From Psammoneis japonica (taxonomy: Eukaryota): a stretch of 64,000 bases of DNA. The position numbers and the translations under genes were made by a program. Below, piece after piece: positions 1-27,707 of this stretch (positions are counted from its first letter, which is position 1; every line of letters begins with the position of its first letter). The DNA lies in contig QPGO01000117.1 of the NCBI GenBank assembly GCA_008632985.1, forward strand, positions 186,001 through 250,000, in the 5' to 3' direction. The notes under the pieces were generated by a model, which saw only the letters and a program-made list of their open reading frames with translations, searched no databases and had not been told where the DNA came from.

Positions 1-607
1 GTGCAACTCCCTTCACGACTTCAGAGACGATGCAAAGCACAAGATGAGCTTCAGAAAAGCACTCCTTCGATTGTCTAAGTTTTTCAAGAAGCTGAGCCAG
101 CAAAATCTCCAAAGTGGAATTGGCTCTCCTTCGTCTTTTACAGGGATCGTTGCACCATCACCAGCAACTCCAGCACAGCCGCCGAGGTGGATGCGCGGTG
201 AAATTCAAAAGGAGCCAACCAATTTTGTGGCAAAAGGAACTGGAAAGTCTCCCAAGCGCTCTCACCTAGAAGCTCTGCTGAAACCAAAGGACAGTTCTGA
301 AGAGGTCCCTTCCAAGCGATTCAAGAGTTGTCGGGGTGCACCTGTGTTCAGAGCAAATGAAAACAATGGAAGTGAGAAAGGGAGTGGAGCTTTGGCGCGA
401 TGCATCATGTGCGACTCCAAGACACATTGGCATTGCTCTGGCTGTCGTCAATGGCATTGTTGCGATAGTCCCCGTCCGCAAAGCGCTGGAGTCCCACACT
501 TTCAAGATTCATCAACGCACCGTGATGGGAAAAACAGGGATCGACCAATCGCCGGCGTGTGCACATGCTTTGTGCACTGTCACCCATCCATTGTGAACCA
601 GGGATAG
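1..607 (+). pseudogene. 3' end of a piggyBac-like transposase with C-terminal Cys-rich zinc ribbon; TpA-depleted
   Basis: ORF 44..607 ends in CxxC..T.W.CxxC..C...CF..H (CIMCDSKTHWHCSGCRQWHCC...TCFVHCHP), resembling the piggyBac C-terminal cysteine-rich domain; no Tyr in 187 aa. Confidence 0.5.
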
Positions 608-719
608 CAACATGCATTTGCATTTAGTGAATGTATCATCTTTTTGACCACCGGCGTAATTGTGGTGCTTTGGAGTGTCATTTGTTTCAAGTGAATGTGC
701 GAATGTGTGAAATTTGCGC

Positions 720-995
720 TGACAGGATTTGAACAGGATTTGGGTGCGCGCGAAGTGTCGCGCGCTGTTCAGTTTGCCGCGCACAGTTTTGTGTGCTTTA
801 GTTCCGTGCGTTCACGCGCGATGCAGTTTGCTTTCGAGCCACAAGGCTCACAAGGATGACAACAGTGGCCCGATTATACCGACTTGCACGTCTTTCGGCT
901 CCTGCAACGGTCTCTGAGCGGAGACTCATCTGCTGTTTAGACAGCAGCAAGGAGTTGTTGTTTGAATTCTTGCCATTTGCCTTCAATTTCTGTCA
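720..995 (+). repeat. 5' LTR (276 bp)
   Basis: Aligns without gaps to 7512..7787 with 19 mismatches, all transitions; TG...CA ends. Confidence 0.95.
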
Positions 996-1892
996 GATTA
1001 ACAGTCTTGCTCATTGTCAACCCATTGAGCAACCGCCATCGTCGTCGTTGATTTACCGACGACGCTGTTTCAATTCTGCGTGGACCTCCGCATGCATTCT
1101 ACATACATCGGCAAGTCTACGCGCGTTCAATGCCAGGCATCGGCAGGAATTTAACGTCACCGTCAAGTCTCCTTACCGCTGGATGTCTGGATTGATTGTG
1201 CCACCTTTGATCGCTGAAGACATGCATCAACGGTCACATCCAAGTCTGTCCTTGATCCTCATCCCTTGACATGCCCATTCAACGGTTAACGGTCAAGCAC
1301 CCTGCACATTCAAGGACCTTCGTCGCTGAAGACATGCACACACACACATCTTCACGGCCAAGGACTTGAACCCACTCTTCGGACTGCGGTTTTGCTGCCA
1401 CTCTACAAGCACACCGAGTCCATTGTACCTGATCTACCCCGGACTGCTGGTGCTCCACAGTTCTGCCAGGTCCACGAGGACAACTGTGAGAGCAAGCAGC
1501 CGTGATTGCAGCCTGCGTTGGGGCGAGGGTGCTTTCCCGCATTTGTTCGTTCGTCCACAGCGCCTGACGCCTACGTCAACTGGCCAGCCTGATCGGGAAA
1601 TCCAACCGACATAAAATGAGAATGGTTTGGGGGTCTTGTTCACCTCTAGTCAGCTCACCTGCAGGGGTTTACAACCCACTGCTCTGCTCGCAAGCAACCC
1701 AAAGCGCCGCTGGCTGCGGGTTCAGACGTGCCGGCACAACTCTACGGACCGGATAGGAAGTTCAGCACTTGACAACGAACGGGATGGCACAGCCCGGCGA
1801 CTTCTGATTTTAAGGTGGTTCAAGATTTCAAGTCAAGTCTGTTTCAAGTCAAGTCTGTTCTCACCCAAGTTTCAAGTCTGCCTTCGCTCCCC

Positions 1893-4800
1893 ATGGTTCT
1901 CACTCGTCAGCAACAAACCGATGGTTTCGAGCACGTTGTTGGAACCGTGCTTGCCCAAGGTGCTGGGAGCCCTCTTCGTTTGGCTTTGGCCCAAGACGGC
2001 ACGGACTCGCATCAAGAACTGTTCACGTTCATACCGCCCCAAATCGACTCGCTTGAGTGCGACAATGGCGCCAATGTGATCCCTTTGCCCCGCGGTTATA
2101 AGAACATGTCAGCAGCTCTAGCCAGTCTGTGCATTGTCAAAGCACACGAAGGTCTTGACGTTGCCAATGACTCCTCGTTGTTCACGCATGACGAGGTCCT
2201 TGCCTGCCGCCTCAGCCCCGACTGCATGTCTTCTGTGTCCATCGGCAGCTCTCCCCTCGCACCTCCGCATGTCACCAACCCGACCAAGGCACGCGACCCG
2301 GTGCGAGACTTCAAGCGAGGCATCAAGCGTGATCCCACCGCTTTCATGGCTCTCAAATCCGACAAGCAGTGGCACACTTGGCACACCTCACTTGTGGCAC
2401 AAGCCCGTGCCCAAGACGTCGAGTGCGTTCTAGACTCGTCGTACAAACCGACCAGCCCCGAAGACAAACTGCTCTTTGCTGAACAGCAAAAGCACATGTT
2501 CGCCGTCTTCGAACGCATCCTTCTCACCGACAAGGGCAAGGCTCTCATCCGCGAAAATGTGGGGTCTTCTGATGCCCAGACCATCCACCGCACCTTGTCT
2601 GAGCATGCGCTTGCCTCCACCCGCGCATCTGTCCAGTCCTCCACCTTGCTCACGCACCTTGCCACCACACGTCTTGGTGATGGCACTTGGAAAGGTCCGA
2701 CCCACGGGTTCATCCTTCATTGGCAAGATCAGTTGCGCAAGTGCGAGGCACTCATCCCGGCCAGTGACCACTTCTCTGAAGGACAGAAGCGCGTCATGCT
2801 CGAGAATGCCGCACACCCTGTCGAGGAACTCCATGCTGTCAAGAACCAAGCTGATCAGCATCGTACGCAGAGTGGCAAGAGCCTCACATGCGATCAATGC
2901 TGTGGCTTGCTCCTCTCCGCGGCAGCTCAATGCGACAGTGCGTTTCAACCCAAGACGACACCTCGAGCTCCCCGACGCGCCATGTGCGCACATGACGTCT
3001 GCTCTGAGGAACCGTCCGACGATGTGTTCTGCGACATTGACAGCGACATTGACGTCCTTCAGGCCAATGCTGCCTGCACCCATGGTCCCAGCCTCACCGG
3101 TGACCAATGGAAACGTCTCCCTCCCGACCACCAACGGATTTGGGATTCGTTGCCCCATTCCTCCAAGGCGATCATCCTTGAGCATTCTCGTCCGCCTCCC
3201 CGCAACCCGCGAGCCAGCAACTGCCATGAGTCCATTGCGAGCCAACCTTCACGACCAACGCCTTGGGAGTGACGGTGATGTCAACTTGTCCAACATGACT
3301 CCTGCTGACTCTGGTGACTCCGCTCCAAATGTGGGTGCCACCTCGGACAATCCCATCCTGGCGCACCTCACCAAGCGCAAGCCACTGCCACCCGGTGATC
3401 TGCAACGTCTGTTGTCTCCTAACCAAGCCCCCAACGCCAGTCGACCGGGGCCATCCGCCGCTCCCTCTACCCCGCCAGCTCCTGCCGATGACACAGAACT
3501 CAACGGCCGCACTTGCCACCGCGTCAACAACCACAATGTCATTTACTCTGCCTCTGCTCATCGCTCCACACGCACTGGCGCTCTAGTCGATCGTGGGGCC
3601 AACGGCGGCATTGCTGGCGACGACATTCGCGTCATTGCACGCACCTCTCGCCAAGTCGACGTTCAGGGCATTGACGACCACCAATTGGTGGACATCCCCA
3701 TTGTCACTGCTGGTGCCGTCATTGAGACCCAGCGTGGTCCCGTCATCGCCATCCTCCATCAGCACGCATGCACGGGCAAGGGCAAGACCATTCGTTCCTG
3801 CGGCCAGCTCGAATGGTGCAAACAGGATGTCAACGATCGCTCTGTCAAGGTGCCCAACGGCTTGCAACGTGTTGCCACTCCTGATGGCTGTGTCATCCCC
3901 ATTGACATCAAGGGCGGCCTGCCTTGTGTTGCCATGCGACCTTACACTGACACCGAATGGGACACCCTGCCCCATGTCATCCTCACCAGTGATGACACAT
4001 GGGATCCTTCCGTCCTCGATCACTCTGTCACTGATGACAACCAGTGGTGCGACGCGATCTCTGACCTGCAGGACGATCCCACTGCCAACCCATTTGACGA
4101 ATGCGGCAACTGCCGTCATCGTGTCGTTGTCAATGAGACCATCATGTCCGCTTCCTTGTCTGCCGATCACGCGTCTGCCCTCGATGATCATCTCATTCCG
4201 AACAACGACGTGTTCTACGAGTGTCATCTACACGCGATTGACCCCAAGGACGACGACGTTCCGCCCCCGGAGCGCACTGTGCAGCCCAAGGACCCCCCCT
4301 TCGAGTCTCTTTGGCCTTGCTTTGGCTTCCCACCTGCCGATGCGGTCCGTCGTACTTTTGACTGCACCACGCAGTGCGTCCGCATGCCCGCCGGTGCACA
4401 CCTCAGGAAGGCCTGCAAATCACCCAACCCCGCCCTTAATGTGCACCGCCGCAACGACCCCATCGCCACTGACACCGTTTGTGCTGACACCCCGGCCGTC
4501 GACTCCAGTTGCACCAGCGCCCAACTGTTTGTTGGCACCGAGTCTACCGTCACTGACGTCTGCGGCACCAAGACAGACAAGGAGTTTGTCAACACACTCG
4601 AGGATCAGATCCATGAGCGTGGTGCCCCATCCAAACTCATTAGCGACCGTGCTCAAGTTGAGATCAGCAACAAGGTGCTCGGGATTCTACGAGCCCTCTT
4701 CATCTCCAGCTGGCAAAGTGAGCCTCACCAGCAACACCAAAACTTTGCCGAGCGTCGACACCAGACCGTGAAGCGCATGGCGAACACTGTCATGGATCGT

Positions 4801-7564
4801 TTCGGTTCGCCTGCCCACACATGGCTGCTGGCGCTCATGCACATGTGCTTCACACTCAACCACACAGCATCCCCACGTCTCCACTGGCGCACGCCCCTCG
4901 AGACTCTCACTGGCTCCACCCCGGACATCAGCCCATTGCTTCGCTTTCACTGGTGGGAACCCGTGTGCTTCCACCTCGATGACTCCGATTGGCCGTCCGA
5001 ATCCCGTGAGTTGCGTGGACGCTTTGTTGGCATTGCTGAGCACGTCGGCCACCAGATGACCTTCAAGATTCTCTCTGACGAGACTCAGAAGATCCTCCAC
5101 CGGTCCAACGTACGATCCGCCACCACCGATCCTGCCGTTCGAAACCTGCGTCTTGATCCTCCTGATGGGGAGCCACCTGAACCCATCATCAAATCTTGCC
5201 ATGACGACAACCCCGTCGACTCTCCTGATGGGGAGATCAGGACACCCAAGATGCCAGTTTTCGATCCGCAAGACATCATTGGACGCACCTTCCTCATGCA
5301 GCCACAAGAGGACGGACAACGCCACAGAGCTCGCATCGTCAAGGCCGTCGAAGACCACGAATGGAAAGTGAACGGCAATCCCGAGCTCACTAAGTTCATC
5401 TGCTCTGTCAACAATGACGAATGCGAGGAAGTCCTTGCCTGCAACGACATCATGAATCACATTGAGCAAGAAGACGAAGACACCACTGTTTGGAAATTTC
5501 GACGCATCGTGTCACACGAAGGACCTCTGAAGCCTCATGACCCAACCTGGAAAGGCTCAAGCTGCAACATCATGCTTGAATGGGAAAGTGGGGAGATCAC
5601 GTCCGAGCCTCTTGCCATCATCGCCAAGGACAACCCCGTCACCTGCGCCATCTATGCACGAGAGAACGGACTTCTCGACACTGATGGCTGGAAGCGGTTC
5701 CGCACCATCGCGAGGCGCCAGAAGAAGCCATTTCGCATGGCCAACCAAGCCAAGCTTCGCTCCTTCCACACTGCACCTTGCCACAAGTGCGGATGCGAAG
5801 TTCCCCGGAACCACAAACACGCCATGTCACTAGACGAACACAACGGCAACCGCAAATGGGGAGATGCAACTAATCTCGAGATGGACCAACTCGGGGAATG
5901 CAAAGTCTTCCATGACTGCGGGCCCTTCGAGTCTTCCACTCCTCCTGCTGGACACAAGAAGATCCGAGTGCACCCAGTGTGCGACGTGAAACACGACAGT
6001 CGCCACAAGGCACAACTCGCAGCCGATGGGCACCTCACGGACGTACCCATCGACAGTGTCCACTCCGGAGTGGTCTCCCTCCGTGGCCTTCGGCTGATGA
6101 TTTTCCTGGCCAAACTCAACGAGTTGGAGACATGGGCCACTGACATTGGCAATGCCTGTCTTGAAGCCACCACCAAGGAGAAGCTCTACATTGCAGCCGG
6201 ACCCGAATTTGGCAAACTCGAAGGACACATCCTTGTCATCCACAAGGCCCTGCATGGACTGCGCAGCTCCGGTCTCCGCTGGCACGAGCGCTTCGCCGAC
6301 TGCCTGCGAGCTGAAGGCTTCTTCCCCTGCCGCGCCGAACCCGACATTTGGATGCGCAGGAACGGCGACCACTGTGGGTGCATTGCCATTTGTGTGGATG
6401 ACCTCGCCATTGCCATGAAGGACCCTCAATCTTTCGTCGACACTCTCACGGAAAAGTGCAAGTTCAAGCTCAAGGGTGCGGGACCCATTGAGTTCCATCT
6501 GGGTTGCGACTTTTCCCGGGATCCCGACGGCACCTTGTGCCTGTCTCCGCGCAAGCACATCGAGCGCATGGTCGACAGCCTGCACCCGACTGTTTGGGGA
6601 GAAACCCACCACCAACGCCCTGTCACCTCTGGAGAAGGGTGACCACCCCGAACTGGACACTTCCGAACTGCTGGAGCCCGATGGCATTCACAAGTTCCAG
6701 TCTCTTGTTGGTTCACTCCAATGGGCAGTGTCCCTTGGTCGAATTGACATTGCCACGGCCGTCATGTCACTCTCTAGCTTCCGAGCTGCGCCCCGTCAAG
6801 GCCACTTGGATCGTGCCAAACGCGTCTGTGGGTGCCTCTCCAAGATGCGACATGGCGCTCTCCGCGTTCACACGGAAGAGCCCGACTGTTCGGATCTCCC
6901 TGCTCTGGCCCATGAATGGATGCATTCCGTGCATGGCAAAGCAGAAGAGATGATCCCGAAGGACGCTCCACCGCCCCTTGGCAAGTTCGTCACTGCCACC
7001 CACTGCGTCAATGCAAACTTGCACCATTGCATGCTCACCGGATGCTCTGTCATGGGAATGCTCCACTTCCTCAACAAATTCCCAGCTGATTGGTTCTCTG
7101 AGAAGCAAGCCACCATGGAGACTGTGACCTGCGGGTCTGAATTTGTTGCTGCAAGGACTTGTGTCGAGCAGATTGTCGACCTGCGCATCACCCTGCGCTG
7201 CCTTGGCGTCCCGATCCACAATGTCAGTTACATGTTCGGTGACAACAAGTCGGTTGTAGACAGTGCCACCATCCCGCACTCCAAGTTACACAAGCGACAC
7301 ACCGCACTGTCATTCCACCATGTGCGTGAGGCAATTGCCTCTGGTTGCCTTGAGTTCCACTTCATCGAAGGCTCCCGCAACCCTGCTGACATTCTCAGCA
7401 AGCATTGGGGTCACTCCCAAATCTGGGACCTTCTCCACCCCCTCATGTTCTGGAACTTCATTCCATCCGAAGTTGAATCTGTTTCTGTGACTCCTCAAGC
7501 AAACTGGGGAGTGACAGGATTTGAACAGGATTCAGGTGCGCGCGAAATGTCGTGCGCTGTTTAG
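1893..7564 (+). pseudogene. Copia gag-pol polyprotein, two frameshifts (~3230, ~6580) and systematic Tyr->Cys/His changes
   Basis: Overlapping ORFs 1815..3272 (gag; FKRGIKRDP), 2476..6642 (PR-INT-RT) and 6476..7564 (RT end, RNase H); RT catalytic motif reads CVDD (TGT at 6391-6393); last ORF runs into the 3' LTR. Confidence 0.9.
7501..7511 (+). other. Polypurine tract
   Basis: aaactggggag directly abuts the TG of the 3' LTR. Confidence 0.6.
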
Positions 7565-7787
7565 TTTGCCACGCACAGTTTTGTGTGCTTTAGTTCCGCG
7601 CATTCACGCGCGATGCAGTTTGCTTTCGAGCCACAAGGCTCACAAGAACAACAACAGTGGCCCGATTGTGCCGACTTGCACATCTTTCGGCTCCTGCAAC
7701 GGTCTCTGAGTGGAGACTCATCTGCCATTTAGACAGCAGTGAGGAGTTGTTGTTTGAATTCTTGCCATTTGCCTTCAATTTCTGTCA
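7512..7787 (+). repeat. 3' LTR (276 bp)
   Basis: Direct repeat of 720..995. Confidence 0.95.
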
Positions 7788-8300
7788 CAAACCCCACCAC
7801 TCCTTCAACCTTGTGATGAACGGCCTTCATGCGCTGTCCCGCACAATTGTGTCAAATGCTTTTGCCTTCTGCATCTTGTAGATCATGTCCCGTTTCATGC
7901 AGTGGTTGCATTGCTTTCCCCAGATTGCCTTGTCCTTCTCTGATGTGGGTTTGCTTGATGGATGTTCTGGCTCCTCCACTTTGTTCTCCTGCCTCAGAGA
8001 TGCCAGTGCCTGCATTTCTGGCCTGAACATTCTTCCAACATGCTCACTCATTTTCTTGTGGTCTCCATGCAACCATCTGCCTGTCAACGTCACTCTGCAA
8101 TGGTGTTGTGCACACCCACTCCTTCAAATCTTTCATGCCTGCTCCACACTCAGTTGTGTCCTTGCCCATGTCAATGTTTGTTCCAGTCCAGCACAACTTT
8201 GCCCCACCCTCTTTCAGCAGACTCTGAACAGCTTCCTCACAGCAAGGTCCTCAGAGACTGTTTCTTTGCCTTTGTCTGGCCAGCACATTTGTCACAATCC
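7788..8300 (-). pseudogene. Degraded gag fragment of a second, different copia-like element, cut off by the 3' LTR
   Basis: ORF 7827..8093: EEPEHP...DKAIWGKQCNHCMKR...QKAKAFDTI resembles diatom copia gag (IWGKEYD.Y.KR...QKAK.F..I) with Y->C/H. Confidence 0.5.
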
Positions 8301-8416
8301 AATGATGGCACAAGTTGCGCCCTTGGATTCTTGATGACTTCCCAGCCAGCCCTTTTTGACTTTTGTGTTGGGATTTCATGGCTTGCTGACAGGTGTGTGC
8401 TCAGCCTCACCAGCCC

Positions 8417-9800
8417 TCAAACTTCCAGCATGGGGACCACAAACACATTTCCATTTCCATTGCTGCCATTGCTGTGTTGACTGGGTGCAAAAGCCAAAAA
8501 GTTGTGAGCACAAGACCCGCAACTCAACATGAGTTGCAATTGTAAATTTGCCACATGATCATCAACAATCATCAGTGCACCATTCACTGCAATGTTGTCT
8601 GTCTGTCCTGTGAAAACTGCCTCACAACCTGATGATGTTCCAACACTCAGCTGCTTTTGCCTTGTGGGTTGGCTTGCCAGGCCACTTTGGATTGAGCCAA
8701 TTGTGTTTCTGACCTGTGTCCATTTGTTGCACATTTCTGAGACTTGCAAATGGCAATGGAACCATTGTTGACACTGACTTGAAAGGCATCTTCACTTTCT
8801 GCCTTCTTGTTGTCCCCAATGGCAGCAGTGGAGCTGTCCAATGAGATGGATGTGGTTGACCCCGCCTGCTGCACTTCACAGCCTGGTGACAATTCTGTTG
8901 TGGTCGTGCCATCTGAGTCCTTGCCAAGCTTTGTTTTTGTGAGACCAGAATGAGTCAAATGGCTGTGATTGGACTTTCTGATGTTTGTCACAGCCCATGC
9001 TCCAACCACAGTCCCACTGCCATCACCACCCAAGTCAACTGCCGGACCAAATTTGTTGCCAGGTTGCACTTCTCCAATCAACAAATTCTTGCTCAAAATC
9101 TCATCATCCATTGTGGCACATCCATCTGAAAGCTGAAGACCAAAACACAGCTCCCAATTGCAAGGACCTGACCATTTTCCAACAAAGCCAGAGGGCTGCC
9201 ATTGCAGGTGCCATCATCAGACAAAAAGACATCATCATTGGCATGCAGCCACTTGCGCTCATCATCATCCACAAAACCACCAACTCTGCCCAGCAGGACA
9301 ACCCACAGGTGGTTGGATCACCCGCTCCCTCCCAAAGTGTTTTGAAACTCCACCTGTGCCTTCTTGCCAATCTCCTCCATGTCACTGTTCCTTGGGATGC
9401 ACCAACCTCACCAGAGCTTGGCCATCTCCTGACAAAAGAGCCACCATGATGTGGCCAGTCACACACCTGTCTCATCAGCAACCATGGCTGGTTGCAACCA
9501 TGAGCCCTCAACAAGGCTGCCATTGTGCACACACTGCCAGCAGCACAGACGTTGCTCTGCACAAGATGTGCTCCACCCAGAGGAGAAAGATCCACCACAA
9601 CTCACCCAAAAAGGCTTCTCACCTCCTCTTGGACCAAGTTGGCAAACCCCAGAAAACAGGTTGCTGCCCAACAAAATTGCTTTGCTGAGTGGCTTCAGCA
9701 CAAGGCTCATTTGATCAGGAGATGGCACCACAGAAGGGGGTGATGGCAGGGTGGTTGGATTTTGTGACACAGGTTTGCCACCCTTGGCTGTCAACAAAGA
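8417..9800 (-). pseudogene. Degraded host-like gene with FG-GAP/integrin-type beta-propeller repeats
   Basis: Fragments GNKFGPAVDLGGDGSGTVVGAW and SISLDSSTAAIGD resemble FG.SV.LS.DG..VAVGA repeats; broken frames; TA/CG-poor. Confidence 0.4.
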
Positions 9801-9828
9801 GCCTCATGTCATCATTGCGACCACTGCA

Positions 9829-9930
9829 GCTGTGGCAACAACAATGCAAACAACCAAAATGGCAAGCAGGCAAGACACAGCTGTGGTGACAACAGCACAA
9901 ATGACCAAAATGACAAGTGGGCAAGACACA
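9829..9930. repeat. 51-bp tandem repeat x2
   Basis: gctgtggcaacaacaatgcaaacaaccaaaatggcaagcaggcaagacaca versus gctgtggtgacaacagcacaaatgaccaaaatgacaagtgggcaagacaca. Confidence 0.85.
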
Positions 9931-11944
9931 CAATTTGGCCCTCTTGTTGCCCCAGTCCAGCCATCACTGCAGCACTGTCTTGAGGAAGTTGATGCAAACC
10001 CGCTGCAGCCAATGATGACATTGATGCAGTGGATGAGGTGTCTAAACCATTGCCCTCTTCTGGACATTTGCAACCATTGCTCCATCAGACTCCATGCATT
10101 TTGAGGCTGCAACTGTCCAATCGAAGACAAACGCTGCAGCAAGAACTTTTGAAATGTGCCACTTCACTTGTCATGGTGGCATGTCACATGCCAATTTTTC
10201 ACATGCCTGCCACCAGCCATTTTTCCAGCACCCACTGGTTCAAAGCTGGCGGCAATGAAAATGCCAGAAAACACAGGTGCAAAATGGTGGTGGCATGAGA
10301 AAGTTTTGGCCAACAAGAAGGAGATTGGTCTGGCAGCAACTGAGAGAATGAGATGGCTCAAGCAAAACTCAAGAGCAGCTCTGGCCCATCATCGCCCAAG
10401 CAAGGAATGCTGCACCAGGGTGCTCATGTGCAGAGCAAGTGTTTGGTTCCAGAGAACCTTTTGAGACTTTCAGGAAGCAGCTGTGCAATTGTTGTTCCAC
10501 CATGACAACGTGTTTCTCATTGTCAAATTCTTGGTGAGCTGTCAAGGAACATGCAGTTGATCTGCATTGACAAAACTGCGTTGATGCATCTGTCCTGTGG
10601 AGTGACAAATTTCAGTGAACAGAAGTTCTCTGTTTCTTGAATCCACTCTGTGGTGGATTGATGGCAGAGATGTGAAATGTCAAATCTCAAAAATAAAAAG
10701 TGTGGCTTGCGATGAGTTTTTCAATGGATTGCGCAAACTGTTTTTTGTGTGAAAGAGCTGGGCTGCAGTTTTCACGAGGTCAACAATGAACCACAAAATG
10801 GAACAATGCTGTGGAATGGGATTCATGTTGACGTTGTCGTCCATCTTGGTGTTGAGAAAGGGTCAGTTTCCCTTCGTCGTGCCCCGAGCCACAAGTCTTG
10901 AAGCCTGCGATGCACCCGCTCGACTTGAACATTTTTAAGTTTTGGCTGGAGAGAGACTTTGACCTCCCAACAGAGAGCAGAGCCACAAAATGCACAAGAT
11001 GTGAGCATCATTGGTCTCCTGCTCTTTAAACCAATGTTTTGCAAGAATGCAGCAGATGTGTTTTGTTCATGGTGTCAGGCATTTGAAGGTGGAGCTGACT
11101 TTTCACGGAGCACCATCGCACAGGAGGAAAGCGTGAGGGACAATGCTTGGTGACAGCTCCGCAACTGTCGCGACTCTCTGCTTGTGACCCCAAAAAGTTG
11201 TCGGAAACTTCGCATCAGTGTGACATTGGTCGGTTGGAAATGCATTTTGGTTGAAAAAAAGGGTTTTTGGTTTTTGTGACATTGTGCGTGGAAGCATGAC
11301 GTTGGGCCTCACAGCAGCCATGGGAGGGGACTCCGCAGAAATCACGCAGAAACGAATTTTTTTGGATCGAAACGAGAGTCACCTCATTCAACAGAGGGTG
11401 TTCAGAGGTGCTTGGAACGGGGCACAACTTTTTCATTGGCCTTGCATTTGTCGAGATTGAGAGTGATGAAGTGACCGCCATTTTCCCGCACTTTGCCGTG
11501 CAGCCACGACTGAAAAAATTCGAGTTTTTCGCACGTTGACTCATTTGTAGTTTTGGAATGTTGTTGTGGCTTTAAAGATGCCAATGGTGACTGACATCAT
11601 AAGTACAAGCTCTCGCGTCTCTCACAATGCATCTACCAAGTCACCTGACTGCGCAGTTGGAGAGAACGTGAAACAGCACTTTTCTCGATTTTGCGGCACT
11701 TCACCGTGTAAAAATCAACTGAGCACAAATGCACGCCATTTTCGCGGTGAAATTAAGGTCACATTTTCACAAGTGTAAAGAAATCTACCTTTTTTATTCT
11801 TTCCACTTGTCTGTTCTATGTTTAGAATTCCCCGTCACCCTTGGAGCAACAATCCAACTCGCCTCTCTCACAAGGTCACGTTCACTCGTTGTCTCCTCTG
11901 TTCTCGTGTTCGCATCCTTCTGCTTGTCACCATGGAGTCCTCTT

Positions 11945-12720
11945 CTAAAGTTTCATGAACATCCACATTTTCTGATTCCTCTTCTGTTTGCAAACCAATG
12001 CAAGTCGTTTCGTTGTCCTCCATCCCTTTGTGTCAATCTCATCGTCTTGGGAGTTGGCCAAAACAGGATCATCCAGAGGATGAACGTGCGCATCTCCATT
12101 GTCGATCGACATCCACTCGTGCTGACACGCTTCTTGCACCACCAATGGGTCCTTTGGATCTGGCCGAAGCCATCTGGTTGCCAAATCCTTGGCCGCCTCC
12201 GAAACATTGGCAAAGGCATCTGGCGCAAACGTCACTTGACCTTTGGTGGCTCCAGCAGTGTCACCGTCAAAAGGAGGAGTGCCACTTGGCAGACACAGAG
12301 AATGACTCCCAATGAAAACATGTCAGCCTTTTTTCCGCACTTCCTCATCCAGCAACTGTGTGATGGCATCACAACACTTTGGGTGCAAAGCACAGTGGCA
12401 TTCCACAAAAGGTCTTCAGGAGGCCCTCATCCTTTTTGGCCAATCTCCACAGTCTGTCAGCTTGATGCCAACACTGCATCAGAGTTGCAATCAATCATTG
12501 GAACATTTTCTGGCTTCAACTCACTGTGAAGGACCTGGCGGTCCTCGCCAAGATGTTGAACAGCACTGAGCAATCGTCTCATGACTCGGCGGCTTTCAAC
12601 TTCAGAGTTCTTGCCTTTGGACACGATCCGATCAAGAAGGTCACCACTGTGCAAAATCTCCATGAACTGTGGGCAAACTGTCATTTGAGGGAAGGGCAAG
12701 AGTCAGTGCTGCCATTGTTT
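11945..12720 (-). pseudogene. CAMK-group Ser/Thr kinase pseudogene
   Basis: GDLLDRIV...LHSELKPENV (HRDLKPEN), LKTFCGMPLCFAPKVL* (TFCGTPxYxAPEVL), VSEAAKDL...DP...HEWM; stops and frameshifts. Confidence 0.8.
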
Positions 12721-14240
12721 CACACATTGCCAACAAAAGATGGCAGGCATGACCAGATGCGTTCCCGCTGCACTCACCAAATGAGAACACTGGGTTTGCT
12801 GCTGCAAAACACACCGTGCCGCTGAAGGCATGATTCAATTCCTGCAACATGGTGGCTTTGGCTTGAAGTGTGGTGAATCCTCAGTCAACAGGGTTTGTTG
12901 TTTGGCTGGAATGCCCTTGACGGCAAACTCTTGTCCCGTGCGACAGCGGTGCATTTGCCAATGTGACGATCTGAATGATTGTGTGTGAAGACGTTGTTGT
13001 CGTCAATGAGCTTGCAACAAAAAGAAAGAAAAGAAAAGGGCTCTTTAGTGTCTTTGCAGAAGCAACATGTCTCCGTGACAAACAGAGAATCAATCACACC
13101 TTTTGGCATTGCAAAGCCAAACCGACAAGATCGGTTCCTGCCACAGCACTCGCATGTTCCTGTGAAACACAACTGTGAAAAGGTGGTGCAAACAAGTGAC
13201 AAAAGAAAATGACATTCGTTTCAATGACTGTGCTGTCAGAGACTCACCTTTGTTGAAATTCTGGAATGAAAGTGGGGTCGCTCACACTTCCTGTCATTGC
13301 TGTTCTGTTGAATCAGAAGAGTTGCATCCATCCATTCTCCATGTCACACCCGATCGTAAAGTGTCTTGGCACTCTTGAGACGCAACATCCTCTTGCAGAT
13401 GACTCGTTTTGAAATCTTCTGGGTGTCCATGATTGAAACAATGAATCTTAGAACAGTTCTGTTGAGTGCTTTGTGTGGAGTAGATCCGACATGGGAAACC
13501 CTGCAGTCCGCACGTGCCCTTCCTGACATTGTGAAAATGTCCCTTTTGCAACGCAGTGAGCAGATTTCCGACTTGCATGCATGCCGATGGGCCATCCTTT
13601 GACTTTGTTCCAATCAGGCGTCTCAGTTCTGCCTCATGAAAGTGCCATTTGGTGATGGCATGTTGTCCAAACGAGTTGCGTGGACATCCGCAAACATCTC
13701 AAAATCATTCGATGAGATTGCCATCAAAAGTTGTGCTTCGGTGCACCCCACCTAATTTGATGACGGCGGACACGATGGCATCAAAAGTGCAACTTTTTGT
13801 GATGATCCTGAGGGTGCGAAAGCGATTTGGTGAGAAACGGCAGGTTGATTTGGTTGTCGCTTGGCGAAGGCTGTGGTGGGAGATGGAAGCTCGGACTTGC
13901 GCGTTGTGAACGCACGTTGAGTCTTACGAATCGTGATCATGACACTTTTTTTTTGTCACGACGATGACGACCGCCATGGTCCATTTGGGCAACGAGGTTA
14001 ATTTTTCTAAAAAAAAACAGCTCCTGCGTGATTTCTACGGCGTCCCCACCCACAGCAGCGAGCACAACGATGCCGTACGCCGTGCGGTACAGTGCGACAC
14101 AACATTCGCAACCGCGCCATTTATTTTTGATCGCAGGATGAGCAACGCGAACCCAATCCAATCCCATCTACGCATTGTCAGACACTGCATCCTTTTGCGA
14201 CTCCTGACAACACTTAGATCACCTTACATGCAATGACGAA

Positions 14241-15641
14241 ATGCCGAGAAAGGTGGCTTACATTCACACTCTCTTGCGGAGCTGCTGTTTCTACGAGGTT
14301 GCAGATCTCGTTCAAGATGACCCTGATCAAGCAGCGGCTCTCAATTCGGCGAAAAGCAGCCCACTTGCGGTGCTGGTCAAGAGCGCAACATGGGGAACTG
14401 TCCAGACAGCCATCTGCCACAATGATCCAACACATGTGGAAGGCTTTGAAGAAGCGTTGGATGCGCTCGTGACAGCGTGTCCGGAAGCTGTGGCGCATCG
14501 CAACAAAAACGGTGATACGCCTCTTATGCTTGCCTGTCGTGACGGACACATCGCTCATACCCCGATGTTTGCTCAGCAAAGCTCTGCATGTTGTGACCTT
14601 CTCAAATGGGCGGTGGATCGAATGATTGACGCTTGTCCCGCAGCGGCAGCTGTTCGGGATAGCGAAGGCACTCCACCCATTGATCACGTTCTGGATCAGG
14701 GTTACGGTCCCATGGATGTCGCTGTCAAGTTGGTCCGTGCCCATCCCGACTCACTTTTACAGGGGAGTAACGGGTTTGGCGGCAGTGTCGCACCTGTGAT
14801 GGTGGGCAACATAAACTCGGCAGACTGTTGCCTCTGGGAACGTGTCAAGACACTCGTATCCTTGGTTCCGTCCTCAGCAGTGACTGCACAATTTCCCCAC
14901 TGCAACGCGATCCAGCAGTTATGGTTTAAGATTCGAAACCGCCCTGACTATGTTGCCAGACATCAACCAGGGGTTGGTCTGCCTCACATCCCAGATTGGC
15001 TCTCAGACGACATGATTGTCGACATTGCCAACAAAATGACGTCATCAGACGGTCAAGACCACGAATTCTATTCCAGGGCATTGGATTTGCTCTTGTTTCT
15101 ACTCAAGGCAGGATACCACAATAGAACGACTATTCCAGCTGATAATGAGGAAGATGACTTTTCTGCTGCCCATGCTGCGGCTGGACTCATCATTCCCTCC
15201 GAAGCCCTCCGCATGATAGTGACACTCTTTCCGGATCAAGTTACTTCCATCGACGACAACGGGCGGCTACCACTGCACATTGCTGCGGCCGGGCCGGGCC
15301 ACAGTCGTGGGTTTGACGAAATTGATCATCCCACTGGCGTGGAAGTCTTGGTGCAAGCCGATCCGGATGCCGTGCGGGTTCTGGACCGGAGTGGAAACCT
15401 ACCTCTCCACTTGGCCCTGCAGAATAGGCACCTACCTCCTTCATTGGGTCTTGGAATCAAGGCCTTGGTACAGGCGGACCCCAGGACGCTCCGGATCGCC
15501 AATGGTACTGGTGCATTTCCATTCTTGCTGGCCGCCACCGCCGCGCGTGACAGAGACGGCCTCGACTTGGTTTATCAATTGCTCAGAGCTGACCCCGCTG
15601 TCATGCGTCTGGCAACTCATGGATCACACGGACAAGATTAG
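14241..15641 (+). CDS. Ankyrin-repeat protein (466 aa)
   Basis: NGDTPLMLAC, NGRLPLHIAA, SGNLPLHLAL motifs; intact ORF. Confidence 0.8.
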   Translation: MPRKVAYIHTLLRSCCFYEVADLVQDDPDQAAALNSAKSSPLAVLVKSATWGTVQTAICHNDPTHVEGFEEALDALVTACPEAVAHRNKNGDTPLMLACRDGHIAHTPMFAQQSSACCDLLKWAVDRMIDACPAAAAVRDSEGTPPIDHVLDQGYGPMDVAVKLVRAHPDSLLQGSNGFGGSVAPVMVGNINSADCCLWERVKTLVSLVPSSAVTAQFPHCNAIQQLWFKIRNRPDYVARHQPGVGLPHIPDWLSDDMIVDIANKMTSSDGQDHEFYSRALDLLLFLLKAGYHNRTTIPADNEEDDFSAAHAAAGLIIPSEALRMIVTLFPDQVTSIDDNGRLPLHIAAAGPGHSRGFDEIDHPTGVEVLVQADPDAVRVLDRSGNLPLHLALQNRHLPPSLGLGIKALVQADPRTLRIANGTGAFPFLLAATAARDRDGLDLVYQLLRADPAVMRLATHGSHGQD

Positions 15642-15853
15642 TATCCGCCGAGTCAGGGCAAAATCAATCCTCGATCCTCATTGTGTCATTGCATACCATT
15701 TATATCATCATCTATCTTCACAGTAGTACTCACTCTAACTTTAGTCTAAAGAGTTCCATAGCTAATCGCAATGGGAGCTACTCACGACTATTGTAGCTGA
15801 AGCGGGAAATCGTATCTACGCAGCATTTGCGATTGTAGGAGGCTGATATAAAT

Positions 15854-17017
15854 TTACAGACTTCCTGTTTGCTCCCATTGTCCAGATTTTGAGCTCTTGT
15901 ACAACGCAAGCACAACCCTTACATCGTTAGCCGCACGAATGACAGTATCGTGAGCAGCATCTCCATCCTTTTCACGGCATATGCGGAGAATGTGCTTCCA
16001 GAGCCCAGCAAAACCCAGAAAGAATCCACCTTTTCGATCCGACGCAAACAATTCTTTTCCGTTCACATTCTCTTCATTGTATATTCGTAGTCCACCTGCT
16101 CCAGGATTATTTTTGAAGAGCCCATCACCATGAATGACAAGCTCACCCCTGTCCCCCGTGATTCGAAAGTACGGACAGGCATCATGAGCCATTGGAGCCG
16201 TAGCAAGCATGTTGCAACTATAGGTGGCAATTAGCGGGCCCGAACCTCGAGGTTGCGGTAATTCAGGAGCCATTTGAAACAATGCGTGTCCCAAGGACTC
16301 GCCTTCCATTTTCAGCTCTGGTGCTAGGTTGTTTCTTACAACGCCGACAACCTTCTCAATACGTCCGCACATTTCTGCCAAGGGTCTGATCCAATGAAGT
16401 CCACCATCAATAGCTATGCCACCTCCAGCACGAGCCAAAGAACCTCGCCATCCAAGGCCACCAGCATCATCCACGCTTCCTGACGTGACATTGTCGCGCA
16501 TGGATTCATAATAGTACGCGGCCGCCGAAACGACTGACCCGATTGCTCCTTGTTTGATTAGATTCTTTGCCAAGGCGACTTCTTCCCAATAGGGCGATTG
16601 TTCGGCAATCACTAGTCGTTTCGATTCGAGCGAGGCTTGAACGAGTCGATCACACGCCTCTTGGGTGGGTGCCAAGGGCTTTTCCATCACGACAATTTTA
16701 TGCGGTTCAATCGCAAGCGCTTGCGTCGCGATCGATTCATGCAAATCGTGTGGCACTGCAATAAAAATAACGTCAATGCTTTCCAAGACTTTTTGTTGTA
16801 ATTTTAAATCATCCAACGTGTCAAACTCTGCTATTTCAGTCGGTAGAGAACTCGGAGGACACAAGTCGCGGATCACTTGCCGTCGACCACACGATGGGTC
16901 ACACAGTGCCTGCACACAAAAAGCTTCAGTCGAGGAGATGGCTTCCAAGTGATGAGTAACAATTTGACCGCATCCCACGATAGCCAGACCCATTCGCTTC
17001 AAGTCGTTCTCAGCCAT
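15854..17017 (-). CDS. Gfo/Idh/MocA family NAD(P)-dependent oxidoreductase
   Basis: AIVGCGQI Rossmann motif, IAVPHDLH, VMEKPLA, GGGIAIDGGLHWI. Confidence 0.9.
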   Translation of the reverse strand: MAENDLKRMGLAIVGCGQIVTHHLEAISSTEAFCVQALCDPSCGRRQVIRDLCPPSSLPTEIAEFDTLDDLKLQQKVLESIDVIFIAVPHDLHESIATQALAIEPHKIVVMEKPLAPTQEACDRLVQASLESKRLVIAEQSPYWEEVALAKNLIKQGAIGSVVSAAAYYYESMRDNVTSGSVDDAGGLGWRGSLARAGGGIAIDGGLHWIRPLAEMCGRIEKVVGVVRNNLAPELKMEGESLGHALFQMAPELPQPRGSGPLIATYSCNMLATAPMAHDACPYFRITGDRGELVIHGDGLFKNNPGAGGLRIYNEENVNGKELFASDRKGGFFLGFAGLWKHILRICREKDGDAAHDTVIRAANDVRVVLALYKSSKSGQWEQTGSL

Positions 17018-17789
17018 GGCGTTTGCTGTAGTTGCAGTTGTCAGGAAAGAGCGCTCTAAAGGTAGCTTGGATGCACCGGTATGTGATGTGGTGTTGGTAA
17101 GTCACGACTTTAAGTCACACAACACAACATGAGATAAAATGAATGAGGTGGTGATGATGGATGAGGGTGAACAACGGTTATCCGCTTTCGGCCGGGATGC
17201 TTCAGTCGTGTCCCGCCCGCCCGCCCGCCCGCGCCGCACTGCTTTCCGTCCCAGCTTCATGCCACGTGTAAAAATTAACCCCCCGTTTTTAACCAAATAC
17301 CCACCTCGATCGACTAACAGTATCCAGATACGTAGTTCAGCACACTTTTGGGGGCCTAGTAGAATGGGGGTGAACGTTAGTTACTGACCAATCACTGAAT
17401 GTTGACTCTCGCACTTGCCCGTGTGATAAAGGTGCTCCACGAAAAGTTAGTTCTATTTTGAAATACCAGATACCACGAACAATACATACCTATTACATTC
17501 TCGCAAGGCATCTGTTTAAAGAGTATGAGACTGATAATGCTCATATCTTGTGTAATTTGTGGCTCTAGCTGGGGTCAAAGTCTAGCTTATTCTACCAAAA
17601 TTTTGAGTCGAGTGGGTCATACGGGATTGAAAACACGTGACTCGCTGTACGATGAGGTGAAATTGACTCGTTCTCGACACCGAGATTAGATGACAACATC
17701 ATCACAAACCGATTTTATGGCAATGTTCTACTTTCTAATTTGTCTTTGACCTCGTGAAAACTATATCTGACCTCTTTCATGCTATAAAT

Positions 17790-19620
17790 GGGTGAAGCAA
17801 TCCACGAACACTCACTCACAAGCCGCGCACTTTTCCATTTTCAGATTTGACATTTGTGTCTTTGCGATCAAGCATGGGTCCTTCAGGGTTGCAAGCCGGA
17901 AACAAGATGTTGTTGACAGTTTTCCACCAAAAAAGTTGCACATTTCAATGAAGCAAAGAAAACATGGCAGTTCTGCAATGTCCCGTTGACAACAAGCTTG
18001 CTGTTTGCCGCCAGAGTCGTTGTTGCGCGCATTCATCATGACATGGTCGCCCACAAAAAACTCCTTCGGCTCATCGCGCAAAAATTGTGGATGGTGATGA
18101 CGTCGCGAGAAGAGGTTTTGTACACAATGTTGTGGCACAAGTGCACGTGTGATGTCAACACACCACGCCCGCGGCTCCAGGAGTGACCCCTGTTTCACGC
18201 AGTGGCCCACGCCCGGCCGCCCGCCCCCATCCATGTCTGCATGCCTGCATGCTGCATGAAATCAAGTTTCAGTTGCAGAACTTTTGGAGTCATGATTCCA
18301 GCACAACAGCTTTGTGTTCAACAGAGCTGCCACTCTGCAACACCTTTGGTGCCCTCAAAGACCATGTGTTGCCATTGTTGAAAACATCTGTGCAGCACCC
18401 AGCACAAGAGCACACAAAAAGCCTTGCTGCCACACCTCAGCAGCGGGGAGGCAAGAAAAGCTTGTTGCTCAAAGGCAGTGCTGCTGGAGGCTGAAAAGGC
18501 AAAAAAAAACATTTGGTTAACAACAAGAAGAAAAGCTTGAGCATTTTTGTGCAAAGTGTGAGCAAATGAACCACAGGATCATGAAAAAAGGGCCGAGTTA
18601 GCATGCAGTTGAAAAATCAAGAAAACACTGTGCGATTCTTTGTTTTTTCAGGTGAAGTGCCTCCTTTGCAGTGCTGCCTGCAGAGAAACATGCCAGCTGA
18701 TGAGCTCCAAGCTGCCAAAAAGCTTCACCTGACAATGATGATGAAATGTGGTGCCGCTCTGCCACTTGTTCAGCTGTCCACGAGTGATGAAACCCCCAAC
18801 AATCAACAACGATGGAAAGATCTGGCATCTGCACAGCACCACAAGGAGGTGTTTTGTGGTTGATTGTTGAGTTGCTCTGAGATGGAATTCAGGGCAAACT
18901 TGTTCACCAGGATGGGCCAAAATGAACGGAGCACTTTTTGTTGTTGCGCATTCTTGCACAGCGCAAACTCGTGCAGCTCGTGCTTGTCGATTTGGCTGTC
19001 ATGCTGCCCTGAAAGAGACCAAAACACACTGGCCATCACATTGGTTGTTAGAGTTTTGTTTCCCACCAGCACTGAAAATCATGCAGGCATTGTGCAGAAT
19101 TTTTTTGTCATGCTCAACAGGAGGAAACTTTGTCAGCTCTTTTCCCCCCTGTGCCCCCGGCCCACCAGAGTCATGTGTTTTCTGCAAAAAGTTGAAAAAT
19201 GGCAACTCGGGCCTTTTTTCATCCTGCAGTTCACTTTGTCCCTCTCTCCTTTCAACCATTCCTTTTTGAAGCAGCTTGTGTGTGTGTCCAACACACAAAA
19301 TGAGCAGAGAGCAACACCCTTCGAGTGCCGCACCCTGAGCTCGTTGGGGTGCTGACAACTCCTTTCCAAGCCAACCCTCCTGCACCCCTGTGCCATTCTC
19401 TTGGCACACTTGCATTTACAGCCCACAGCCACAAGGGGGAATGCCCATAGCCTGATGCTTTTCCATCCCTCCACTGTTTGCTGCAGTGATTTCGCTGCTC
19501 TGTCACAAATGGTCCGCTTGTCTGGTGAGAGGAGAATGAAGACCCTCGCGACCTCCCACGCGCGATCAAGAAACGAGCACGCGCGCACGCACGCACGCCG
19601 TGCAACGTGACCTTCAACCA
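17790..19620. other. TpA-depleted degenerate block (unidentified repeat or gene relic)
   Basis: Only about 6 TpA in ~1.8 kb by eye; many overlapping C/H/Q/W-rich spurious ORFs; flanks have normal TpA. Confidence 0.75.
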
Positions 19621-19979
19621 TGGATCGCGATGCGTGCACGCAGCGTTCCTCCAAACCTTTGCTGGCAACGGAGAACCACAACGAAGATCCAACATACCGC
19701 TGTTTGCGGGAGAAAATGGCGTTCCTACCTGCGGAGAACCTCAGCTGTTGTTCTTTTACAACCCTGCCTCTTTAGAGCCGCACAAGACGACGGCGTGCCC
19801 AACGTTCTCTTAGTTGCTCTCAGACAAGCACGCACATTGCGCATTCAAGTTCGAACAAGTGGGAGCAAGATAGACGGTCCGGTTCTGCAAATTGCGAAGC
19901 TAAAAGCACTGAAGTAAAGAAGCAGTGTGTCAATTGGAGGATTTCATCAACTACACGGTGAAGGCATCTGAAATCCCAA

Positions 19980-22712: not shown

Positions 22713-23099
22713 GTGTGGCTGCGGTCGAAGAAAGCAGACCAGGAAACAGCGTTGGCGGCGCGAGCACATGACACACGATGGAGCCGGAGAACTTTACAGC
22801 AGGGTACGGTAACTCTTTGGAGTGCAGGAACTTCTGCCATCCATGTAAAACTACACAGGATGCTTTTTTGTTCAAGTCAACAGCCAAGTTTCTATGGCTA
22901 GCCAGTGCCTGCCGGGACCACAGACATTAGATGTACGAAAACGGAAAGGGTGCGCTGACTGTTGGCAATGATTGAAGCAGTGTCAGCAAAAGATTTTGCG
23001 GTGAAACGGGGAAGATTAGAGCAATGATAATTTATCAAATGTGTGCATTGTACAAGACTCTAATCATCTCGAATCTCTAACGAATGAAATGAACCGTAG

Positions 23100-23977
23100 A
23101 TGCCAACTGATTCAGAATCAAAGCGCTGCCACTTGATGAGCAACACTTGATGAGCAAACAGATGTCATGGTCCATGAGCTTCGCACACTCCTGGCAAGCC
23201 CAAATGAGAACCACCAAGAATGGTTGTGGTGGCTGAGCCACAGAGTGACACAACAGATCACAACTCCAATCAAGTTGCAGTGGCTGTCAATCATGACATT
23301 CACAAAGATGAGAGAAGGCAACATGGTGATGTCGTCAACAGCAAAATTGTGACAGCTTGAGATGATGTGGTTGTTTGAAGGGTGCTTGGACAGTCGTCAG
23401 TGCAAAAACATGCAGAATGTGCAACAATCCCAGCTCTCCTTGCATTTTTCAAAAGCAAAAAGATGATGTTGATTGACATGTCATTTCTCCACACTTGTGT
23501 TGGTGTGGACAAAGGACATGTGCCGGCCGAGACAGAGCGGAGAACACATTGGCCACCTTGCCATCTTTTTGTTTCTGCCAATGTTGGCCAATGCTTGTGT
23601 GGCAAGTTTGGAAAGTGTGAAAGCAAAGCATTTTTTGTGTCATCACCTTGCTCTGCCATGCATTCTTCAGCACAGATCAGAGAGTCTGTGTGCCTCTTCA
23701 CACCGCAGCAGCGGGGTTGTTTCGCACTGCTGCCACACAGAAGCAGCAGACGCAGTTGCGAGCACCTCTCAAGCCACAGCAAGCTCAATCTTTTCTTTTG
23801 ACAACGTTGCATTGCACGTTGATGAGTCGAGAGCAAGTTTTTCGCTTGCAGCCCGTGCCACCCAGCCTTGCGGCTCTCTGGCTGAAGCTCCATTTCCGGG
23901 TTCCCCAGAATTGTTGCGAGCTCCAGCTTGAGGTCTGGTGCTCGTGGCTTGCGCAACACCGCACAGAGAAAAAAACA
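23100..23977. other. TpA-free block directly upstream of alpha-mannosidase copy 1
   Basis: No TpA seen between ~23099 and 23999. Confidence 0.8.
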
Positions 23978-27368: not shown

Positions 27369-27707
27369 AATACGATACAAGCTGGCGTTTTATTGAGGTT
27401 AGATATTAACTCCCTAGAAATGTCTGCGTCTGTAAGAGGCAGACGACCAAATGTTAATGACACTTGTGTTTCAACCTGTGAAATGTCGGAGTCGGACCTC
27501 AAAGTTGTCAAAGGTTAGATGCGAGTGGCGGTCCTATTCACTGGTCAATCACAGCTTCCTTTGACGAAGCTTCCGTCGCTATTTGGGGGGGCGTCTGCGG
27601 TGTCCGGTTTTTCACTTGTCACTTTTGCCCCTTTCTTGACGAGTCTTTGAATGCCCGACGATGTCAAACGAAGCACGTGAAGTGTTCTTGGTTGTCTCCG
27701 GTCTGGT

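Follow-up and report, generated by a model that had tools for sequence, protein, structure and literature searches.

A TpA-specific A:T>G:C hypermutator aimed at mobile DNA has one prior report, a 2026 preprint on the chlorarachniophyte Bigelowiella natans, which describes TpA>TpG/CpA hypermutation of integrated nucleocytoplasmic large DNA virus (NCLDV) and virophage DNA (Mettrop et al., bioRxiv 10.64898/2026.01.13.699255). By its account, 231 of the 302 nuclear mutations in mutation-accumulation lines fell into the integrated NCLDV and virophage sequences; 230 of these 231 were A>G or T>C, all 230 of them at TpA, at a rate about 1000 times background and in only some of the lines (10.64898/2026.01.13.699255). 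TpA-depleted coding sequences of B. natans are reported there to be enriched in reverse-transcriptase and DDE domains, and an ADAT2-like deaminase is proposed as the agent (10.64898/2026.01.13.699255). Diatoms, flanking bases and retrotransposons did not come up in a term search of the preprint, and in the literature we found no report of TpA hypermutation or of a process resembling RIP (repeat-induced point mutation) among diatoms; the 'hypermutation' of the SPLASH paper concerns immunoglobulins and was set aside. Here we analyse a stretch of 64,000 nucleotides from the Psammoneis japonica assembly GCA_008632985.1 (contig QPGO01000117.1, positions 186,001 to 250,000; hereafter the window), in which a Ty1/copia long terminal repeat (LTR) retrotransposon around 1893-7500 and several further blocks have lost most of their TpA. 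The first-pass annotation of this DNA held that no eukaryotic system with this signature had been described, which no longer stands, as the B. natans preprint reports exactly TpA>TpG/CpA (10.64898/2026.01.13.699255).

The copia element is recognized by LTRs with TG...CA ends and by an RVT_2 reverse-transcriptase domain in a long polyprotein (open reading frame (ORF) 2476-6642; E 1.3e-20, 74.5 bits against a Pfam cut-off of 31.6). Its parts are the following:

720-995, plus strand: 5' LTR of 276 bp with TG...CA ends, pairing with 7512-7787 at 93.1% identity (Self-BLAST)
1893-3218, plus strand: N-terminal gag-like part of the polyprotein in frame 3 (tblastn match to residues 1-449 of homolog P0002)
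3219-3288, plus strand: first frameshift interval (frame change between tblastn segments)
3289-6582, plus strand: middle part of the polyprotein in frame 1, with the RVT_2 reverse transcriptase (tblastn match to P0002 residues 482-1553)
6579-6586, plus strand: second frameshift (frame change between tblastn segments)
6587-7468, plus strand: C-terminal polyprotein segment in frame 2 (tblastn match to P0002 residues 1555-1848, 71% identity)
7512-7787, plus strand: 3' LTR of 276 bp, with 19 differences from the 5' LTR

Pfam gave no match on the gag-like segment, the C-terminal segment or 2-607, and a target-site duplication was not found, the 5 bases before the 5' LTR and the 5 after the 3' LTR being different. 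A word-indexed search found 1476 homologs; the best 120 of them are 51-64% identical and mostly single ORFs of about 1850-1900 aa. For comparison with other copies, contigs from three read runs (one sample, one study) were placed on window positions 1-20000. Base 3240 of the window is omitted in 7/7 contigs of run X1 spanning that position, base 6579 in 8 X1 contigs and base 6580 in 6. As the frameshift bases are missing from other copies, both frameshifts are single-base insertions private to the window copy, or assembly indels.

Between 1893 and 7500, the observed/expected ratio (O/E) is 0.12 for TA, 1.60 for TG, 1.34 for CA, 0.85 for CG and 0.86 for AG. Since AA (1.04), AT (1.03) and TT (1.01) are undepleted, the loss is specific to TpA, and the A-to-G enrichment at TpA that had been predicted from the letters of this DNA is borne out. 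In the neighbouring genes TA O/E is about 0.5 (2-kb gene windows mostly 0.45-0.62), and the GC content of the element is 0.55-0.60 as against roughly 0.47-0.50. The remaining TAs are about 3-fold denser per base at the 5' end, with 22 in 799-2119 (1321 bp; 5' LTR, leader and gag start) versus 27 in 2120-7500 (5381 bp).

The consequence for the protein is a loss of tyrosine. Read through with X at the two frame breaks, the polyprotein comprises 1840 codons without a stop, and has 8 Tyr (0.4%), 64 Cys (3.5%) and 98 His (5.3%), where the best 120 homologs have 2.9-4.6% Tyr, 0.5-1.9% Cys and 2.6-4.6% His. At the 49 columns with Tyr in at least 70% of 60 aligned homologs, the window has Cys 24 times, His 13, Tyr 6, Phe 5 and Trp once, encoded by TGC (18), TGT (6), CAC (11), CAT (2), TAC (5), TAT (1), TTC (5) and TGG (1). 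Thus, 37 of the 43 replaced tyrosines have become Cys or His. Of the 813 columns with other conserved residues, by contrast, 721 are unchanged in the window (Fisher test of Tyr loss against these, p 2.6e-31). The Tyr-poor polyprotein of the first-pass annotation is therefore confirmed, and the codons it cited are as given: the catalytic YVDD motif of the reverse transcriptase reads CVDD (TGT at 6391), ALYGL reads ALHGL (CAT at 6253) and GNAYL reads GNACL (TGT at 6157). SVYSGV>SVHSGV (CAC at 6061), ERRYQ>ERRHQ (CAC at 4759), TYGSEF>TCGSEF (TGC at 7130), LRYLG>LRCLG (TGC at 7199) and the first Tyr of HQYAY (CAC at 3763) hold as well. One example, VYDVKH>VCDVKH, lies at a column that lacks a majority Tyr in this family, and thus depends on what is known of copia elements in general.

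Related copia loci from metagenomes have a TA O/E of 0.35-1.00 in 79 of 80 cases, in a set biased to unmutated copies, one of the two patterns used to collect it having contained Tyr. The exception, L069:1-1025, a 1025-bp metagenome contig, has a TA O/E of 0.04 and reads ERRCQ for ERRYQ and LMCVCF for LMYVCF; the same TA-poor state thus occurs in an environmental sample. The DNA of this contig is only 66.5% identical to the window copy.

When did the copia element lose its TpA? The two LTRs of an element are identical at insertion. Here they differ at 19 of 276 positions, all by transitions, and are 100% identical in purine/pyrimidine code. The differences comprise 4 TG-versus-CA doublets, 3 TA-versus-TG/CA, 6 CG-versus-TG/CA and 2 others, so that 11 of the 19 lie at TA-derived sites, 6 at CpG and 2 elsewhere. 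A TG-versus-CA doublet implies an ancestral TA that mutated on opposite strands in the two LTRs; the doublets do not stem from CpG, because only 6 of 21 CpG sites changed in either LTR copy. If hidden same-direction double hits are counted as equal to the doublets, each LTR had about 13 TAs at insertion (4.7 per 100 bp, the normal density being 3.6 per 100 bp) and each copy lost about 73% of them, versus 2 differences outside pyrimidine-purine (YpR) steps in 276 bp. The implied excess of the TpA rate is around hundred-fold, and several-fold above that of CpG, as estimated from few LTR sites. The LTR differences show that the copia element was inserted with a normal TA density and was mutated afterwards.

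The direction of change is seen again in an old repeat pair within the window, one copy of which is TA-poor (10600-11200) and the other TA-normal (17350-17950): the 30 TAs of the normal copy align in the poor copy to TG 12 times, CA 8, TA once and other dinucleotides 9 times. Similarly, for the repeat at 1-667, 15 of the 18 listed differing places are TA in the reads and TG or CA in the window, and a 545-bp contig of depth 790 over 8-552 represents the TA-keeping version. Three independent lines, namely homologs, repeat pair and reads, thus show that TA is the ancestral state and that the direction is TA to TG/CA.

The loss is not limited to the copia element. Counted in 500-bp windows, TA drops from about 10-29 to 0-4 in several blocks, whose edges, taken from individual TA positions, are sharp to about 10-30 bp, the resolution being set by TA spacing. 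There are six TA-poor blocks (1-~11547, 11947-~13998, 17786-19416, 23098-23999, 28117-38193 and 57357-58319), with a TA O/E of 0.00-0.14; pooled, they have 113 TA in 26,200 bp, versus 1,277 in 35,500 bp of the remaining regions. Outside the copia element, and without assigned strand, the affected stretches are:

1-719: TA-poor flank, one copy of a repeat, with 4 TA in 1-500; the commoner version in the reads keeps TA
7788-11547: TA-poor block, of which 8001-10500 is also CpG-depleted (CG O/E 0.06-0.17)
11947-13045: TA-free interval of 1099 bp with minus-strand Pkinase fragments; TA stays scarce up to about 13998
17786-19416: TA-poor block adjoining the TA-normal repeat 17350-17785, from TA counts and positions
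23098-23999: TA-free interval of 902 bp upstream of the first GH38 copy, with TAs at 23078 and 23097 and the next at 24000 and 24011
28117-38193: 10-kb block without most TA (O/E 0.00-0.12) and CG (O/E 0.00-0.21 from 28501 on)
57357-58319: TA-free interval of 963 bp, with TAs at 57312 and 57356 and the next at 58320 and 58349

A TpA-specific A:T>G:C change at the DNA level, as had been proposed for the copia element, has therefore hit both this transposon and other blocks. CpG is lost in two of these, 8001-10500 and 28117-38193 (O/E 0.00-0.21 in most windows), and in the latter the CG and TA losses begin at the same edge (last CG at 28109, last TA at 28116). This CpG loss is either ordinary 5-methylcytosine (5mC) decay or a second arm of the same system.

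As to what the blocks were, Pfam searches with 126 ORFs gave sub-threshold matches only (Pkinase fragments, Plavaka, FG-GAP_2, DUF2975). The kinase fragments, at 12460-12702 (minus strand, E 3.2e-7) and 11948-12322 (minus strand, E 0.005), both fall below the Pfam cut-off; together (11948-12702, minus strand) they may be a hypermutated pseudogene, or a gene on a mobile or viral insert. The sole hint to the identity of the 28-38 kb block is a match to the KDZ-type Plavaka transposase at 35870-36484 (minus strand, E 1.3e-4), also below the cut-off. A word-indexed search with this ORF against longer proteins found no homolog, HMMER over 1.84 billion representatives gave 4 weak matches for the ORF 36241-37053 (minus strand; best E 4.8e-5), and neither Pfam, HMMER nor the word-indexed search yielded usable homologs for the block. 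A self-search in purine/pyrimidine code for hidden homology between blocks turned up nothing besides the LTRs, the GH38 pair and a single short tandem. Self-comparison also shows short tandem duplications at 28192-28443, 32114-32314 and 63456-63606, with units of 67-131 bp and 82-92% identity.

The loss is confined: adjoining host genes keep their TA. A control is provided by a GH38 alpha-mannosidase gene that is present twice in the same orientation (23977-27369 and 38436-41839), with 3201 of 3385 aligned bases identical (94.6%). These duplicates differ by 103 transitions and 81 transversions, and the TA bias is absent. The 10-kb TA- and CG-depleted block sits between the two GH38 copies, and TA-free DNA lies just upstream of each.

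Because TA-free DNA has neither TAA nor TAG, long ORFs appear in all six frames. On the minus strand, long ORFs run within 2096-6687, for example 2430-3245 and 5830-6687, and TA-free DNA gives the first GH38 ORF a false N-terminal extension of 150 aa (23621-24070). Annotation is affected by such false ORFs and by transposon proteins that have Cys or His where Tyr is expected, and gene callers would be misled here.

Surviving TAs are not distributed evenly over flanking contexts. In strand-symmetrised counts, with a comparison set that is mostly genic, the TA-poor blocks and the rest have 0 versus 100 ATAT, 4 versus 197 ATAC/GTAT, 5 versus 152 ATAG/CTAT, 7 versus 183 ATAA/TTAT, 11 versus 54 CTAG and 21 versus 51 TTAA (chi-square 92.5, 9 d.f., p 5e-16). 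TAs in ATA/TAT contexts were thus removed most completely, and those in TTAA least. Product 4-mers gave too noisy a result to separate the base after the A from the base two positions before it as the driver of this preference. Both strands are affected: the ratio of TG to CA counts is 0.88-1.12 in the five larger blocks, and in the copia element Cys and His stand at conserved tyrosines in a ratio of 24:13 (p 0.10). In the first-pass annotation, TAY>TGY and TAY>CAY had been read as the same event on opposite strands, and both products occur (24 Cys and 13 His, with TG/CA ratios near 1 in most blocks).

The reads also bear on whether the assembled sequence can be trusted. The contigs of run X1 that lie in unique parts of the window are, without assigned strand:

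8147-8619: run X1 contig, depth 68, 0 differences
8594-10307: run X1 contig, depth 63, 1 difference
10284-11001: run X1 contig, depth 67, 2 differences
10989-11389: run X1 contig, depth 70, 1 difference
18091-20000: run X1 contig, depth 62, 1 difference
14030-17268: run X1 contig over normal genes, depth 56, 0 differences

Among X1 contigs of 473-5857 bp and depth 56-70, those over TA-poor unique blocks match as well as those over normal genes (0-2 differences). Near-error-free contigs of kilobase length at single-copy depth point to accurate reads, and accurate reads give a methylated base as its parent base. Over the copia element, summed contig depth reaches 64,914-156,131, compared with 56-67 in unique bins; while summed depth does not equal copy number, the copia family is clearly abundant. 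Over the 20 kb, X1 contigs differ from the window by A>G 129 times, T>C 128, C>T 133 and G>A 113, and by each type of transversion 6-13 times.

By what process was TpA removed? We favour, with a probability of about 0.78, that the copia element and at least six other blocks were hypermutated as chromosomal DNA after their arrival, TpA being converted to TpG/CpA near saturation with the adjacent host genes left untouched. Adenine would be deaminated to hypoxanthine, which is copied as G, by an enzyme that prefers A after T and might find silenced or foreign DNA through a signal that is either sequence-guided or set in chromatin. Mobile DNA would thereby be disabled without the creation of stop codons; as no change from sense to stop codon is possible, a heavily mutated element still looks open. 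The tRNA deaminases TadA/ADAT act on A34 after the invariant U33, and by analogy this family is a tentative candidate for the agent. The deaminase mechanism put forward in the first-pass annotation matches the one proposed in the preprint (10.64898/2026.01.13.699255). Its other candidate, a Pol-eta-like polymerase, fits poorly: WA-motif mutagenesis by Pol-eta gives A>G at TpA and ApA, and with an AA O/E of 1.04 and an AG O/E of 0.86 in the element, ApA is not depleted.

The first-pass annotation had itself named one alternative, a sequencing or assembly artefact, in which a long-read base-caller took modified bases of silenced DNA (e.g. N6-methyladenine at TpA and 5mC at CpG) for G or T where the DNA in fact has TA. 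We consider this very unlikely. Strand-dependent miscalls could give random TG or CA at palindromic sites, the two single-base insertions absent from other copia copies resemble those of imperfectly polished long-read assemblies, and the only runs found come from one sample. However, X1 contigs reproduce the TA- and CG-poor stretches 8147-11389 and 18091-20000 with the same 0-2 differences as genes, other copies of the same sequence context have TA in that run, the independent metagenome contig L069 shows the same state, and the B. natans data are Illumina reads (10.64898/2026.01.13.699255). Deamination of retrotransposon RNA or cDNA during retrotransposition, in the manner of ADAR, ADAT or APOBEC, with subsequent integration of the mutated copy, would account for the sharp element edges and for the modest excess of A>G on the sense strand (Cys 24 versus His 13; TG 1.60 versus CA 1.34), and RNA adenosine deaminases typically favour U/T on the 5' side (10.64898/2026.01.13.699255). 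Nevertheless, TA was still present when the LTRs were duplicated and was lost independently in the two, including at the 4 TG-versus-CA doublets; both strands were hit, single-copy blocks without sign of a retroelement are also affected, and the B. natans mutations arise de novo in integrated DNA (10.64898/2026.01.13.699255). Editing before integration is thus quite unlikely as the source, and ADAR-type hyper-editing fixed by retrotransposition was rejected on the same grounds, given both TG and CA products and LTRs that diverged independently.

The remaining two alternatives concern the chemistry and the very existence of the mutation. Thymine modification biased to TpA is reported in dinoflagellates, and a TET/JBP-type hypermodified T at TpA in silenced DNA, 5-hydroxymethyluracil (5hmU) or a derivative, could mispair with G and so yield T>C, with targeting and outcome as under adenine deamination and only the chemistry being different; 5hmU pairs mainly with A, though, and our analysis yielded no evidence for such a lesion. 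As TA>CA on one strand is TA>TG on the other, A>G and T>C are inseparable by sequence (see also 10.64898/2026.01.13.699255). On chemical grounds we regard the thymine route as less likely than adenine deamination, and as unlikely overall. UpA avoidance is common in viruses, and the GC content of the element is raised, as would be expected if the family natively avoided TA, by virus-like selection or through GC-biased gene conversion, with no hypermutation at all. This is extremely improbable in view of a catalytic motif that reads CVDD, 37 of 49 conserved tyrosines turned into Cys or His, two frameshifts, a TA O/E of at least 0.35 in 79 of 80 relatives, LTR differences that are neutral changes after insertion, and AA, AT and TT at undepleted levels, unlike under a general AT>GC bias.

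Several points weigh against hypermutation of chromosomal DNA in place. The LTR estimate is based on 9 observable sites, and among all blocks the LTR evidence for mutation in place concerns the copia element only; transposition of non-autonomous elements that were mutated beforehand could give sharp edges as well. On the coding strand of copia, TG exceeds CA (O/E 1.60 versus 1.34, with the corresponding excess of Cys over His), which leaves room for a partly strand-biased component. The TA-normal repeat 17350-17785 (summed depth 3,593 in its bin) directly abuts the TA-poor block from 17786, and the commoner copies of the 1-667 repeat keep TA, so that being a repeat is insufficient as a targeting rule. 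The three runs are possibly the assembly's own data, and as their platform is not on record, a long-read base-calling artefact is excluded only by inference from contig quality; for copia, read support was not seen site by site (545 differing places). Finally, the support comes from the sequence of a single window and from reads. What the spared copies do show is that hypermutation is specific to the copy or locus, with only some copies of a repeat family hit. Together with the sharp edges, this speaks for a signal that is guided by sequence or specific to the locus, and against simple sensing of repeats.

The host of these elements is diatom-like and not B. natans, as far as its gene sequences can tell. 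For the eIF3g-like ORF the nearest protein-atlas clusters are most often from Bacillariophyta, and the best named relatives of the cycloartenol-synthase ORF, 55-62% identical to it, come from pennate diatoms (Fistulifera, Mayamaea, Cylindrotheca, Seminavis, Epithemia, Nitzschia), with a chlorarachniophyte match far lower in the ranking. The window genes are long uninterrupted ORFs. The loss of TpA is real and striking. An enzyme behind it, a signal for its targeting and a role in defence are proposals. A saturated signature on retrotransposons in a diatom-like genome suggests that the system is widespread in marine algae, in which case genetically tractable diatoms would offer a route to the enzyme and the targeting signal. 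More speculatively, diatoms and chlorarachniophytes may share a natural DNA adenine-deaminase defence by which TpA in silenced mobile DNA is rewritten as TpG/CpA. It would be guided precisely enough to halt where elements end, would favour ATA/TAT and, in some targets, would go together with an active deamination of CpG. The two self-complementary YpR steps would in that case both end up as TpG/CpA, by a natural DNA adenine base editor in a RIP-like system of opposite polarity across the SAR supergroup (stramenopiles, alveolates and Rhizaria). Laboratory adenine base editors were evolved from a tRNA enzyme, and to our knowledge no natural enzyme deaminates adenine in chromosomal DNA.

How, then, does this locus compare with known systems? 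Fungal RIP consists of C>T changes, mostly CpA>TpA, which create TpA, lower GC and hit all copies of a duplicated sequence (see also PMC7296669). Our window resembles it in an in-place, transition-only hypermutation that inactivates repeated or mobile DNA, is confined to elements and lies far above background. It differs in that TpA is destroyed and GC goes up to 0.55-0.60, and in that the process reaches single-copy blocks and passes over some copies of repeats; the TpA depletion and raised GC rule out RIP itself. The decay of 5mC (CpG>TpG/CpA) has the same TpG/CpA products and is also seen here, with a CpG O/E of 0.06-0.17 at 8001-10500 and 0.00-0.21 at 28501-38000 and with the 6 CG-versus-TG/CA differences between the LTRs. 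It does not remove TpA, however, and in the copia element CpG still stands at 0.85 versus 0.12 for TpA.

Among deaminases, ADAR and ADAT/TadA act on RNA. ADAR occurs in animals only, and in a retroelement its marks would be limited to the transcribed strand. With ADAR hyper-editing and ADAT/TadA our system shares A>G changes and the preference for U/T before the edited A (10.64898/2026.01.13.699255). Unlike in RNA editing, both strands are affected in the window, DNA-only blocks are included, and the changes followed insertion. APOBEC3, which edits retroviral and LTR-retrotransposon cDNA, likewise hypermutates LTR elements by deamination, and the edited copies stay behind in the genome (PMC4866542). 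Its C>U changes are made on minus-strand cDNA and so produce G>A that is strand-specific and precedes integration, whereas here A:T>G:C changes occurred on both strands and after integration.

The closest likeness is to B. natans, as described in the preprint (10.64898/2026.01.13.699255). Both have TpA>TpG/CpA changes with a gain of CpA and TpG, which are found locally in foreign or mobile DNA and spare the remainder of the genome, and both show partial targeting, of some lines there and of some copies in our window. The B. natans mutations were measured directly as they arose de novo, while those of the window are known from sequence comparison only. The hosts are different, B. natans being a chlorarachniophyte (Rhizaria) and the host genes here diatom-like, and so is the extent: the B. 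natans inserts are far from saturation, with TA making up 3.3% and 9.2% of dinucleotides, as against a TA O/E of 0.00-0.14 in the window blocks (10.64898/2026.01.13.699255). Particular to the window, relative to the preprint's account, are the LTR-retrotransposon target, the timing given by the LTRs, the sharp edges, the strong preference for ATA/TAT over TTAA and some loss of CpG (10.64898/2026.01.13.699255). It is the same kind of process as in B. natans, found in a second lineage, on transposon targets and near saturation.

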